DNA from: Candidatus Heimdallarchaeota archaeon
GTDB lineage: Archaea; Asgardarchaeota; Heimdallarchaeia; JABLTI01
Length of the DNA: 64,000 nt
Direction of reading: 5' to 3'
Assembly (NCBI GenBank): GCA_019058275.1
Contig: JAHLVW010000074.1
Span: forward strand, 1-64,000
Shown here: one piece after another, positions 2,515-26,796 of the stretch
Numbering within the stretch: position 1 is the stretch's first letter
How the letters are laid out: every line of letters starts with the position of its first letter
Notes under the pieces: model-generated
Told to the model about the DNA's origin: nothing
Database searches by the model: none
What the model saw: only the letters and a program-made list of their open reading frames with translations
Program-made: the position numbers and the translations under genes

Positions 2515-4152
2515 ATGATGGATTCAGATGAAAGAAATATTGAACTTCTTATTAAACAGTTAAAGGAAGGTGAGGAAATCGACCTTCGTTGTATTGCTGC
2601 AGAAAAGTTAGGCAACAAACAAGATCATTTTGATATTATTATTCCTGCGTTAGTTGAAGGACTTAATGATGATAATTGGCTTGTACGTGTTGAAATTGCA
2701 AAATCCCTAGGACGTCTAGGTCAGAATGCTCTTACTGCTATTGAACCATTAAAGAAAGCTATGAATGAACCTCGTAATAGAGCAAAGAGGGGACACTTCT
2801 ATGAGATTATTACTGGTTTGGAGCAGATAAAGGCTAGTGGACCCGAAATTACTCCCGAACCTGTTATTGAAGAACAAAAGATTGTTGAAGAAATTCCGGA
2901 GGAGCCTATTGAAGATAAACCAACCGAAGAGATTACTGAAAGAGTTCCAGAAGAAGAAGTTGTTGGAGAAGATATTGAAGAAATCGTTGAAGACATCGCA
3001 GACGATCTTCCAGAGGACGCAACAGATGATACAATTATCAAAGAAGCAATAGAGGAAATCACTGAAGAAGTACTTGAAGATGTCATTGAAGATTCTGTTG
3101 ATGATTCCGTAGATGAGGATGTCATAGAAGATATTGCCAAAGACATCGCTGAGGGAATTGCTCAGGAAGTTGTTGAACTTGAAAAGAAGATCGAAGAGGA
3201 AAAGGAAGATGAATCATTAAGTGATTCTGAAGAATTAGAGGTCATGGAAGAGGTTCTAGAAGAAACTATTGAAGATACACTTGAAGATCTTATAGAGGAA
3301 GTTGTTGAAGACTCTGTTGACGAAGATGTTATTGAGGAGCTTGCAGAGGATATAGCAGAAAAGGTTATTGATATAACTGAGGAAGAGGCTGAAGAAGTTA
3401 TAGAAGCACCTACATCCGATGTAGTTGAAGAACCTGTAACTGGAGAAATGACAGAGGAAATTGTAAGTGAAGAAGTTCCACTTGATGAAGTTCTAGTCTT
3501 TAAAGAAGATGAGGAAGAGGAAAAAAAAGCTCCCTCTAAACCTATAGCAAGTGATGACTTACCTGCTGAACTAGATGTTCCTATAAAGAAAATGGTAAAA
3601 ACGCTCCTAAAAGTTGTTCTTGTTGGAGATGAAGCAGTTGGAAAAACAACCCTCAGAAAGGGTTATTGTGACACAGGATTTAGTTCAGAATATAAAGAAA
3701 TTATAGGAGCTGATTTTGCTTCTAAACAACTTGAAGTGAAAGATGAGAAGTTTGTTTTGCAAGTTTGGGATATCGCTGCAAAAGAACGTTTTAGATTTAA
3801 CAAAGAACTTTATTTCAGAGGATTAATTGGAGCATTACTAGTTTTTGATGTTTCAAACAAGGAATCTTACAATAATGTTGCTAAATGGCTTGTTGATATT
3901 GTCACAGTGGAAAATAAAGAATTAGCACTGGTTCTTGTTGGTAATAAAATTGATTTACGAGGAAACATAGATTTAGAATGTACGAGTTTTAATGATGGGC
4001 AAGAACTAGCTGCAAAACTTTCAACTAAATCTGGTTTTGAAATCCCATATATAGAAACTTCTGCATTAACAGGAGCAGCTGTTGAACAATCATTTCAGAT
4101 GCTAACAGATAGAGCAACTGTAATATATTTCAAACTAAAAGATAAAATGTAG
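2515..4152 (+). CDS. HEAT-repeat / acidic low-complexity / Rab-like small GTPase fusion
   Basis: N-terminal PBS-HEAT repeats, an E/D-rich linker of about 230 aa, and C-terminal GDEAVGKTT, IGADF, WDIAAKERF, NKID and ETSA motifs. Confidence 0.9.
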   Translation: MMDSDERNIELLIKQLKEGEEIDLRCIAAEKLGNKQDHFDIIIPALVEGLNDDNWLVRVEIAKSLGRLGQNALTAIEPLKKAMNEPRNRAKRGHFYEIITGLEQIKASGPEITPEPVIEEQKIVEEIPEEPIEDKPTEEITERVPEEEVVGEDIEEIVEDIADDLPEDATDDTIIKEAIEEITEEVLEDVIEDSVDDSVDEDVIEDIAKDIAEGIAQEVVELEKKIEEEKEDESLSDSEELEVMEEVLEETIEDTLEDLIEEVVEDSVDEDVIEELAEDIAEKVIDITEEEAEEVIEAPTSDVVEEPVTGEMTEEIVSEEVPLDEVLVFKEDEEEEKKAPSKPIASDDLPAELDVPIKKMVKTLLKVVLVGDEAVGKTTLRKGYCDTGFSSEYKEIIGADFASKQLEVKDEKFVLQVWDIAAKERFRFNKELYFRGLIGALLVFDVSNKESYNNVAKWLVDIVTVENKELALVLVGNKIDLRGNIDLECTSFNDGQELAAKLSTKSGFEIPYIETSALTGAAVEQSFQMLTDRATVIYFKLKDKM

Positions 4153-4522
4153 AATGACAAGAGCTATTTCATGTAAGATATTTATCAATTAAAATAAAAT
4201 ATCTCCAGAAAGTTTCTTTGTCAATTCATTTATTTCATTTTCGATAGTATTTGATCCTCCGGAATCATCCCATTCATTTCATTTGCTGCTTTCTTTAGTG
4301 AAGCTATCAATTTTTGAAAATCCTTTTCTCGTACAAACATATGGCTGTCTTTTTTGCATTTATTTTAAAAATTTCTCGAGATAAATCCTGTTTTTGGTCC
4401 ACTTTAGTCACAACTTGTGACCTCATCTTGAGTCTCTTAGTTGAGTTCCAAAAAAGTGAATCCACTTTATATATGAAATAACTAGTATGTTATTCAAGAA
4501 CAAAACTTGGAGAAGAAAAAAA

Positions 4523-4609
4523 ATGAACAAAAAACAAGAAATCAAACAACAAATCAAGAAGGAATTCGAGCAAACCAGAATGAAATTCGCTTTAATTGCT
4601 GGTGCTTAG
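4523..4609 (+). CDS. 28-aa peptide MNKKQEIKQQIKKEFEQTRMKFALIAGA
   Basis: GGAG RBS, TATA-like TTTATATA at about 4466, and paralogy to 4689-4772 with synonymous codon divergence. Confidence 0.8.
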   Translation: MNKKQEIKQQIKKEFEQTRMKFALIAGA

Positions 4610-4688
4610 CTGGTCACAACTTGCCAGACAGGTATTATAGAGTGACCAATTATAAAGAATTACAATAACAAAAAAGGTGAAGAAAAAA

Positions 4689-4772
4689 ATGAACAAAAGA
4701 GACCTAAAGAAAAGAATTCAACAAGATAAAGAAAGAGCCAGAATGAAATTCGCACTTATCGTTGGAGCATAA
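4689..4772 (+). CDS. 27-aa peptide MNKRDLKKRIQQDKERARMKFALIVGA
   Basis: GGTGA RBS; paralogue of 4523-4609. Confidence 0.8.
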   Translation: MNKRDLKKRIQQDKERARMKFALIVGA

Positions 4773-4804
4773 TTCAACATCTATCCTGACATAAAGGGAT
4801 GGTA

Positions 4805-4851
4805 GTTCAAGATTCAGTTCTTGAACACCCAATATTCATTCTGGTTTTTTT
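4805..4851 (+). terminator. Hairpin plus T-tract after the peptide pair
   Basis: GTTCAAGA-N6-TCTTGAAC perfect stem, followed downstream by a poly-T run. Confidence 0.5.
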
Positions 4852-14124: not shown

Positions 14125-14823
14125 TTATTTGAGAACGTATCCACAATTAGAACAATATTCCCTATTTGGTTCAAAGAGATTGTTGCATATTGGGCAAATT
14201 CCTTGGGCTAATTTTTCTTCTCTTTCCCTCAATTCTTGAGCACTTGCCCTTCTATCCTCAGGCATCGTTGATTCGCTTTTTGCAGGCATTTTCTGGATTA
14301 ACACATAATCATCTTCAATAATAAAATTCGAATCTTCTGCAAGTATTTCAATTACACTTTCAATAGGAATCATTGTAATAGTACTTATCCACTGTAGGCT
14401 GGTTTTTTCCTTATTACTCACTAGTTCTTTGATTTTTATTTTCTTTCCTTCTTTTGACTGAAAATCTATTTCTCTTAACTCCTCAGGTTTTCTGTATTGC
14501 TGAATTTTTGATTCTTTTGTTTTTTCTTCGTTCAAAATTTTCTTTCTTGTTTGTTTGATTATTCGTTCATCTGTGCGTTGTTTAGTTCTAGTATATTCTG
14601 ATTTCTCGTAGGGATCAACATCAGCATCTTTATAACGATAATCTCTATGAGCTCGGATTTCAATTGGAAGAGAACCATTTTGAGTGTCTTTTTTCATCAA
14701 GAAAACATCCCCTCTTCCTTCTCTTCTTAGTCTTCGAGCAAATAGGACTATAAAACCAACAATTCCCAAGATTAAAATAAAGATCGCTATTCCCGCCATT
14801 ATCCAACTAAATAAGCTCGCCAT
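14125..14823 (-). CDS. Membrane-anchored protein with a C-terminal double zinc ribbon
   Basis: N-terminal TM helix; CPIC...CSNCG. Confidence 0.75.
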   Translation of the reverse strand: MASLFSWIMAGIAIFILILGIVGFIVLFARRLRREGRGDVFLMKKDTQNGSLPIEIRAHRDYRYKDADVDPYEKSEYTRTKQRTDERIIKQTRKKILNEEKTKESKIQQYRKPEELREIDFQSKEGKKIKIKELVSNKEKTSLQWISTITMIPIESVIEILAEDSNFIIEDDYVLIQKMPAKSESTMPEDRRASAQELREREEKLAQGICPICNNLFEPNREYCSNCGYVLK

Positions 14824-24987: not shown

Positions 24988-26796
24988 ATGGAGTTAATTA
25001 TGATAATTGATAATGTCATGAAAAATAAACATACTTTAAAATGTCAAAGTTATGACTATACTATCAAAAGAATTGTTTCTGCCTTTGATAAAATGGGTAT
25101 AAATCTTCGAATAAAAAAACCAATAAGAAATTCAAAAGTAAATTCTTATTACTATAAAACTGATTTACCTGAACTTAATTTTACTACTCACGGAAAAGGA
25201 ACTACAAGAAAACAGGCATTAGCATCAGCTTTGGGTGAAATGGTTGAGAGGTTTTCAGCTAATTTACATTTCAAATTTTTTTATCCCGACTATAATTTGA
25301 TAGACAATGAACTAATTTTACAGTTTGTAAATGGCAAACACTTGCATGGATACATTAACATACATCAAAATAAATTGAAAGATAAAATTTCTATTGAAGA
25401 TCTCTTTAGAAATTATAAAGGCGACTTATCTGAAAACCAGATAAACAAAATTAAAAACATGGATATGGCACAACACTGGGTAGATGGCTATTCTTTACTA
25501 TCAAATAAAATTGTAAAAGTACCTATCAGATTATTAAAAATTCTAAATACATCAAATGGATTAGCTGCTGGGAATATGATCATAGAGGCAATTGTTCAAG
25601 CTTCATGTGAGATATTTGAACGGTATAGTTTGATTGAGATTATAAAGAACAAACTTATTCTGCCTACTTTTGATAAAAATACCATAAAAGACAAAACTAT
25701 AAATAAAATGATAAAGAATTATGAAAAAAATAACATAAAAATAATGGTTAAAGATTTTTCACTTGATAACCTGTTACCAGTAGTAGGCGTTATTTTCATT
25801 AATGAAAATATTCAAGATAAGAATTCATTAAACTATCAATTTGAACATATAAGATTGAGTTTTGGGGCTTCGTTTAATTTACATGAAGCAATTAAAAGAT
25901 GTTTTACTGAAAGAATTGCAGGTTCTACCTTATTTTCCCTTAAAAGGGGTCATACAAGAATATTTGAGAAAAATCTCATAAAAGGATTAAAACCTGAAAT
26001 TACAATTAAAGAATCTTATGGTGAGCTATTAAGAAAAGCTCGTTATAATGGTGATAAATCTTTTTTGTGTGAAGGACCAATAATTTCATTTCCTAGATAT
26101 AATGAAGATTATAACTTCCTAACAAATATTGAAAATATTAAAAGAATTTGTAGAAAATTGAACACAGATTTTGTTGTAATAAACCATACACATCCAACAT
26201 TGCAGTTTCCAACAGTAAGAGTAATAATACCAGGATATTCTGATGTTTTAAATTATTATGATTTCAGATTTAATGATTTAATTAATGTTTTAAAGTATGG
26301 AATTACAAAAAGTAAATTAATTAAATTGTTTACCAGAAATGATTGGGTTGATGATAAGGAAAATCTTGAAATTTTAGAGAATACTATTTTGGATAGTTAT
26401 ATTCGAAATTGTGAAATGGATTTGATTACTAAAAGTAATGAGTTGAACAGTTTAAAGAAAGGTATACTGATTTTAATTTCGATTTATTATAATGCTAAAG
26501 ATTTTGAGAAATTCAAAGTTGCTACAAAATTTGCTTCTATTAGTCTAAATAAAAAGCTGAGAATAAAATTCCGATATTTGTATTATTTGATAAACTATTA
26601 CTTAAAAACTAGAGATGCAGATGTGTTAACCCTTATTGATAATTATTATAAAAAATTGAAAGGGTGTGAAAAATATCTTTATTCAATCCCCAAGAAGAAT
26701 CCTTTTGTGACATGGTGCGATGAAGAATGTGAAAGGCAGTGTGAAAAGAGATATTTATCTACTCTGAATGAAGTATTACAGAGTTTTTTTGTATAA
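24988..26796 (+). CDS. YcaO-family ATP-dependent amide-modifying enzyme with a C-terminal extension
   Basis: GKGTT..QALASALGEMVER, SNGLAAGN..EA...CEIFER, RCFTE and VRVIIPGYSD motifs. Confidence 0.92.
   Translation: MELIMIIDNVMKNKHTLKCQSYDYTIKRIVSAFDKMGINLRIKKPIRNSKVNSYYYKTDLPELNFTTHGKGTTRKQALASALGEMVERFSANLHFKFFYPDYNLIDNELILQFVNGKHLHGYINIHQNKLKDKISIEDLFRNYKGDLSENQINKIKNMDMAQHWVDGYSLLSNKIVKVPIRLLKILNTSNGLAAGNMIIEAIVQASCEIFERYSLIEIIKNKLILPTFDKNTIKDKTINKMIKNYEKNNIKIMVKDFSLDNLLPVVGVIFINENIQDKNSLNYQFEHIRLSFGASFNLHEAIKRCFTERIAGSTLFSLKRGHTRIFEKNLIKGLKPEITIKESYGELLRKARYNGDKSFLCEGPIISFPRYNEDYNFLTNIENIKRICRKLNTDFVVINHTHPTLQFPTVRVIIPGYSDVLNYYDFRFNDLINVLKYGITKSKLIKLFTRNDWVDDKENLEILENTILDSYIRNCEMDLITKSNELNSLKKGILILISIYYNAKDFEKFKVATKFASISLNKKLRIKFRYLYYLINYYLKTRDADVLTLIDNYYKKLKGCEKYLYSIPKKNPFVTWCDEECERQCEKRYLSTLNEVLQSFFV

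Follow-up and report, generated by a model that had tools for sequence, protein, structure and literature searches.

A lineage-restricted family of small basic proteins in Heimdallarchaeia, with recurrent operators and a predicted fold-back mRNA

Stress-induced small proteins of bacteria are shorter than 50 aa, have their own promoters and terminators, probably form a single helix and bind larger proteins. In the RRNPP systems a peptide is paired with a receptor, as in Rap-Phr and Rgg-SHP. Archaeal activators usually bind 5' of the BRE/TATA elements while repressors overlap them (PMC5937170), and aCPSF1 binds terminator U-tracts via its KH domains (PMC8716108). Heimdallarchaeia are close relatives of eukaryotes, and their small proteins and regulons are almost unstudied. 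The locus described here offers a peptide motif conserved in about 60 variants, two operators, one of them with a candidate regulator, and a covarying mRNA helix that includes a likely U-tract terminator.

The two genes and their protein family

The locus lies in a window of 64,000 nucleotides, the whole stretch of DNA that we analyzed. Two ORFs form a cassette flanked by an upstream HEAT/Ras-GTPase gene and a convergent downstream adenosine-kinase-like gene. Its features are as follows.

4407-4461, + strand: box D array, with a GTCACA-N3-TGTGAC box at 4407-4421 and two more boxes at a 13-bp period
4456-4461, + strand: GTGAAT half-site of the D array, directly before the TATA box
4466-4473, + strand: TATA box of ORF1, TTTATATA, 57 nt 5' of the ORF1 start codon
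4509-4522, + strand: Shine-Dalgarno sequence of ORF1, GGAG (4509-4512), and A-rich spacer
4523-4609, + strand: ORF1, 28 aa, alpha subtype, net charge +4
4611-4648, + strand: site E, TGGTCAC-N24-GTGACCA (arms 4611-4617 and 4642-4648), candidate operator-promoter
4633-4640, + strand: TATA-like tract inside site E, 56 nt 5' of the ORF2 start
4676-4688, + strand: Shine-Dalgarno sequence of ORF2, GGTG (4676-4679), and A-rich spacer
4689-4772, + strand: ORF2, 27 aa, beta subtype, net charge +6
4731-4747, + strand: 5' strand of the predicted long-range mRNA helix, in ORF2 codons 15-20, around the conserved Arg-Met
4761-4778 (its loop holds the stop codon), 4781-4802 and 4805-4826, + strand: three inner hairpins of the predicted multiloop
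4835-4851, + strand: 3' strand of the predicted long-range mRNA helix, including the U7 tract at 4845-4851

The original prediction described two micro-ORFs with ribosome-binding sites, A-rich spacers and a TATA-like box, and all of these lie where it placed them. A Shine-Dalgarno-like site and an A-rich spacer also precede nearly all other members of the family. Comparative sequence evidence indicates that ORF1 and ORF2 are real genes for small basic proteins. Their last nine codons differ from each other by four synonymous and two non-synonymous changes; across 131 family pairs, which are not independent of one another, dN/dS is 0.30 and the differences by codon position are 612/304/928.

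The upstream neighbor (2515-4152 of the window) encodes a 545-aa protein in which a long acidic repeat linker joins HEAT repeats at the N terminus to a Rab-like GTPase at the C terminus, and its position upstream of the cassette is conserved. A contig labelled Hodarchaeum mangrovi (L081), which is possibly misbinned, shares the adenosine-kinase neighbor (82% identity) and carries no peptide pair, forming an empty site. Close second copies of the cassette, complete with both operators, both ORFs and the terminator, lie at unrelated sites in two genomes (L061/L062 in G007 and L052/L053 in G009), which suggests recent duplication of the whole unit.

A profile search yields 11-12 family matches in this genome, spread over about eight sites, and 2-15 matches in each of the 11 genomes of genus JABLTI01, which we take to be the 'Gerdarchaeales' lineage. 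The same search of 291 other Asgard genomes sampled gave a single weak match, within a long frame. A probable divergent member occurs in the sister genus (E 0.45) under promoter D, the promoter of the window pair, and the peptides are limited to one family-level lineage. Its 57 representatives among 1.8 billion proteins are mostly 27-33 aa long (44/57), and none is a domain of a long protein. There was no match in Pfam (above cut-off), PDB sequences or the ESM Atlas, nor above cut-off in an Rfam search at the locus; solved structures and the long proteins of this genome likewise yielded no segment resembling the peptides, and the family is absent from the literature searched. Together with the recurrent operators described below, the copies in all genus genomes and the low dN/dS bear out the regulated small-protein family that was first proposed.

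Members share a helix rich in Lys, Glu and Gln that has two Ile positions in the consensus and is followed by R-h-K-h-A-L-h-x-G, zero to three further residues and the stop codon. Arg-x-Lys/Arg is present in 46/58 sequences, and the final residue varies, with GR, GA, GC and GQ endings. Net charge ranges from +3 to +10, there is no membrane segment, and the best 15-residue hydropathy is 0.08 and -0.11 for the two window peptides, with a family median of -0.22. We infer that the peptides are cytoplasmic, basic and helical. The residue four positions before the conserved Arg marks two subtypes, being hydrophobic in alpha and polar in beta; in paired genes alpha usually comes first, and the second position is beta in 14/14 cases.

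Several functions had been suggested at the outset. A membrane-type type I toxin conflicts with the hydropathy values, and a secreted signalling or antimicrobial peptide with the polar helix and the lack of an export signal. A leader/core precursor is contradicted by the absence of a modifying enzyme near 47 loci and by the C-terminal nine residues, which are under at least the same constraint as the remainder (dN/dS 0.22 for the last nine codons vs 0.39 elsewhere, again from non-independent pairs). Among these options the likeliest is a putative docking tail.

Known short motifs (MIM1, PIP box, APIM, HbYX and lipobox) do not fit the consensus. A tmRNA tag or ssrA degron was also rejected, given the genes' own Shine-Dalgarno sequence and ATG, the Rfam result and the variable last residue. 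Other basic micro-ORFs, related or analogous, have a YY-x-DG-type tail (G000 C55:178714-178812, C96:50153-50248, C61:~255270-255390 and C84:~14425-14535); some are arrayed, others adjoin ArsR-type genes or operators, and the family profile misses them.

Operators, regulons and candidate regulators

The palindrome at 4407-4421 is present as first noted. Palindromes of the 7-1-7 type are not rare alone, numbering 16 in the window and 4-15 in shuffled sequences, and this one takes its meaning from recurrence, as it opens an operator array found again at other promoters. In this genome the D array marks 11 promoters scoring 35-74 bits, with the next best at 18. The pattern occurs in 12/12 genomes of the same family and in 0/71 other Heimdallarchaeia, and the reversed control gave 0. 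Across 24 aligned promoters the TATA box of ORF1 keeps the same position. Besides the window pair, D promoters in this genome serve two more family loci, one divergent peptide and genes for two further bactofilin-like proteins (three in the regulon), an ABC-2 exporter, three beta-lactamase-family (serine) hydrolases and a DUF1028 protein. The array lies upstream of the TATA box, yet extends to the BRE position. Promoter D probably drives ORF1, presumably through a protein that binds the array. A D site was sought upstream of 28 HTH_20/PadR genes, as expected of a self-regulated D regulator, and none was found (best 4.5 bits); there was likewise no GntR match for such a regulator. At G000 C1:115818-116003 (L211, L127, L129, L131, L132 and L149) promoter D drives a divergent ORF of 28-33 aa, which in five genomes sits 5' of deoxyhypusine synthase.

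The stems that had been predicted to follow each ORF as hairpins are both present in the sequence, but the first of them (4611-4648) behaves as a DNA site, which we call site E. A conserved RNA hairpin can be rejected here: the arms show no covariation, the inner pair is broken in 4/8 orthologues and the spacer is always 24 nt. The 11-mer shared by this site and the D palindrome does exist, but orthologues keep the GTCA/GTGACC cores only. This genome contains six E sites with at most one mismatch at spacer 24 and 0-1 at any other spacer from 3 to 40. Site E is found in 10/10 genus genomes and 25/31 genomes of family f2 (reversed control 0); overall it occurs in 36/83 Heimdallarchaeia genomes, all within two families (f1 and f2). 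The spacer is oriented, and its internal C and A are retained in 18/19 held-out sites where 2.1 would be expected. Site E is a palindrome of fixed geometry, at a fixed distance from the TATA element and start codon, that recurs before unrelated genes. Since the fixed, oriented spacer holds a TATA-like tract at a distance from the ORF2 start that matches the TATA box of ORF1 to within 1 nt (56 vs 57 nt), site E is very probably a separate promoter for ORF2. This gene is probably also transcribed by read-through from D.

Among the targets of E are paired TldD/PmbA genes, a nitroreductase gene, MFS and GNAT genes, further small basic ORFs and, at C5:35050-36511 (G000, L182), an operon of three genes. 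This operon encodes a 101-aa helical protein, a 120-aa membrane protein and a 165-aa helical/winged-helix protein, all without a Pfam match. When modelled, the product of the last gene shows long helices in its N-terminal half and a winged helix, with weak fold matches (E at least 0.01). Site E lies 5' of the operon in 10/12 genomes, and within the class this candidate regulator is found in f1 and f2 only, the two families with site E. Site E would most likely be bound by this putatively self-regulating protein. The candidate's gene is also present in other Asgard classes. In f2 genomes (L158, L159, L161, L166-L170, L172, L173 and L175) another multicopy family is driven by E; its proteins are 40-42 aa long and end in an aromatic-x-G-H/Q-hydrophobic tail.

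The E regulon bears on whether the peptides are unstable substrates or decoys of proteases (TldD/E, PAN or Lon), or precursors of a modified peptide. TldD/PmbA genes belong to this regulon and are numerous, with 19 matches in this genome and 9-21 per genus genome vs 0-13 in other Heimdallarchaeia, and the hydrophobic tail is reminiscent of C-terminal degrons. However, the TldD excess is confounded by kinship and the last residue of the peptides varies widely. A modified peptide would call for an enzyme of which the neighborhoods of 47 loci show no sign; YcaO occurs in 5/12 genomes and never beside a family member. We regard this account as distinctly improbable. The window's own YcaO gene (24988-26796), rejected as a modifying enzyme because it is unlinked to the family, is a stand-alone gene for a 602-aa protein between those for ribosomal proteins S10 and L3; in other genomes YcaO has different contexts.

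We consider exported signalling or antimicrobial peptides the least credible of the alternatives, very improbable even though the peptides are cationic and about 30 aa long and the D/E regulons include an ABC-2 exporter and an MFS gene. The sequences have neither a signal nor a double-glycine leader, the helix is mostly polar, and no transporter or receptor is fixed beside the genes at 47 loci.

Other copies of the family are found under different control. Some are divergent from PH1932-like ArsR genes under TCTCA-N5/6-TGAGA, some lie 5' of a 350-aa ArsR-type gene under TTACA..TGTAA, and others lie 5' of bactofilin-like and GNAT genes or beside AbrB and DUF7347 ArsR regulators. The family thus falls under at least four operator types or unrelated adjoining regulators. 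Beta genes are found with operators of types A, D and E and alpha genes with types A, B and D among others, so that subtype has no one-to-one match to regulator. On the peptide tree, which is poorly resolved, operator class changes 14 times vs 21.9 when shuffled; this clustering leaves room for cognate pairing. The best fold match of the PH1932-like regulator is PDB 1ULY (E 2e-8). A profile search did not support a resemblance between the peptide and the helix at the N terminus of the 350-aa ArsR-type protein. In family f17 a conserved ORF of 40-45 aa with an ALGCRNP motif lies 3' of a PH1932-like gene (L108:~1910-2048 and L115:~2400-2520).

These neighborhoods raise the prospect that the peptides act inside the cell as feedback ligands of cognate winged-helix regulators, either as co-repressors or as anti-repressors, with the window pair tuning the D and E regulators in trans. 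At many loci an ArsR-type gene is divergent or shares the transcript, each of the six best type-A operators of this genome is followed by a small basic ORF, operator labels cluster on the tree, and the helical C-terminal domain of the PH1932-like regulator could accept a helix. Against this, a single motif would need to fit unrelated regulators, including one of AbrB fold, and the same subtype appears under different operators. Moreover, PH1932-like genes are widespread in Asgards, and 21 loci checked outside the genus have no such peptides. We consider feedback ligands rather unlikely, if still worth weighing.

The fold-back mRNA helix

The stem at 4805-4826, the second of the predicted hairpins, is retained as an inner hairpin of a larger predicted structure that the original prediction missed, in which a 17-bp helix between 4731-4747 and 4835-4851 closes three hairpins (MFE -46.4 kcal/mol, z -4.4). 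As an operator this stem was ruled out, given that the rest of the genome shows no enrichment of its motif. A strong helix is present in 15/32 beta genes and 0/27 alpha genes, with the register chosen by score, leaving about half of the beta genes without one; z ranges from -3.7 to -7.3 in the strong cases. RNAalifold predicts the helix independently on an unfitted alignment of 17 loci. The covariation of these 17 related loci was reached in 0/500 shuffles and exceeds all slid controls, although kinship may overstate it. The pair that involves the third position of the Ala/Thr codon appears as C-G, A-U, U-A or U-G and is broken in 0/17 rows. Frequent G-U pairs assign the helix to the peptide strand.

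Inside the helix synonymous divergence falls from 0.41 to 0.25. The conserved Arg codon is AGA/AGG in 31/32 beta genes, and in alpha genes it is AGA in 19 and CGA in 11. Since alpha genes, which lack the helix, have a dN/dS of 0.24 (0.41 in beta) and mixed AGA/CGA codons, while beta genes show the synonymous drop and the AGA/AGG bias, these sequence patterns indicate that selection acts on both protein and RNA. The protein-level selection first claimed from synonymous differences therefore stands for the family as a whole, but around the Arg-Met codons of ORF2-type genes conservation is partly RNA-level and not protein-level alone.

The helix is confined to genes that are last in their transcript, most of them followed by a convergent, non-conserved gene, and operon-heading genes lack it. 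The start codon and A-rich spacer are unpaired and the pairing falls 42-58 nt into the ORF; in the predicted fold of the window locus a single local 4-bp stem touches the Shine-Dalgarno sequence of ORF2. Blocking the Arg codons gives an alternative predicted fold in which the 3' strand pairs close to the start of ORF2. The terminal motif of the cassette recurs at two other family loci in this genome, and the U7 tract at 4845-4851 is likely a terminator.

A stable, covarying fold-back on multicopy small ORFs, and the nearly identical cassettes that two genomes carry at unrelated positions, recall type I toxin modules such as hok and aapA, in which mRNA folding controls a growth-inhibiting protein. 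The proteins here have no hydrophobic membrane helix, alpha genes have no fold-back, and no antisense gene is seen. The conserved helix is also predicted mid-ORF with the start codon unpaired, unlike the pairing that sequesters the Shine-Dalgarno sequence in aapA3 (PMC6733600). We think a toxin-like module quite unlikely.

Alternatively, the ORFs could encode cis-acting leader peptides, with a ribosome stalled at Arg-x-Lys/Arg opening the helix and permitting read-through (attenuation). The invariant Arg lies at the center of the helix, the Arg-x-Lys/Arg motif is common in the family, and alpha genes often head operons. However, it is the operon-heading genes that lack the helix, and a co-oriented gene to be controlled is missing after the window pair, where the adenosine-kinase-like gene is convergent, and at most helix loci. 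Attenuation is accordingly improbable in our judgment.

Proposed role and relation to described systems

The reading that we favor, tentatively and without putting it above an even chance, is that the microproteins are a cytoplasmic docking helix, a shared output of several regulons. ORF1 and ORF2 would be separately regulated genes whose products act in trans, docking via the conserved R-h-K-h-A-L-h-x-G end of the C-terminal helix. All copies would have one conserved cytoplasmic partner rather than each its adjoining regulator, and the regulons served may be of stress or detoxification type, judged by gene names alone. One conserved motif under many unrelated regulators makes a single common target the simpler explanation. 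The absence of a membrane or export segment and the selection on alpha proteins even without the RNA helix argue for docking; the many copies that adjoin regulator genes and the clustering of operator classes on the peptide tree argue against a common partner.

In the finished mRNA the U-tract would fold back onto the Arg-Met codons, a pairing that the covariation supports. A ribosome would have to open this helix, so that translation may expose the U-tract and an untranslated mRNA may hide it. Since aCPSF1 binds U-tracts (PMC8716108), the state of the helix could tie 3'-end formation or decay to translation. If it does gate termination or decay, this would be a simple coupling of translation to 3'-end formation in archaea. 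A bolder combination, in which the codons mask the U-tract from aCPSF1 as a translation-sensing 3'-end switch and the family is the several regulons' shared effector on core machinery, be it the ribosome, a protease or basal transcription, seems to us unlikely.

The cassette resembles hok and Helicobacter aapA3 in its ORF of about 30 codons, its several chromosomal copies and the conserved pairing that joins the 3' end of the message to a segment further upstream; it differs in that the partner is mid-ORF and not the Shine-Dalgarno sequence, the 3' strand is an archaeal U-tract and the protein is polar (PMC6733600), and in that no antisense RNA is seen. As at aCPSF1/FttA terminators, a U7 tract lies shortly 3' of the last stop codon, but here it is predicted to pair with coding sequence and close a multiloop, an arrangement that the available part of PMC8716108 does not describe. 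Palindromic operators beside a TATA box are shared with PH1932 (PDB 1ULY) and archaeal ArsR-type regulators and follow the logic of TFB-RF1 (PMC5937170). The PH1932-like regulator adjoins other copies of the family and its operator differs from those of the window pair; the searches run gave no named match for operator D, operator E or the candidate regulator.

With RRNPP pairs the family shares an arrangement in which, at some loci, a small peptide gene adjoins a regulator or diverges from it, but there is no export signal, the C-terminal hydrophobic run being only about 7 residues, no TPR receptor, as the neighbors are PH1932-like, other ArsR-type or AbrB regulators or none, and no one-to-one pairing. 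The family has no sequence relation to the stress-induced small proteins of bacteria and differs from them in having about a dozen paralogues per genome under several regulons. Undescribed in the literature and databases searched, it belongs among the regulated prokaryotic microproteins, here with a fold-back mRNA.
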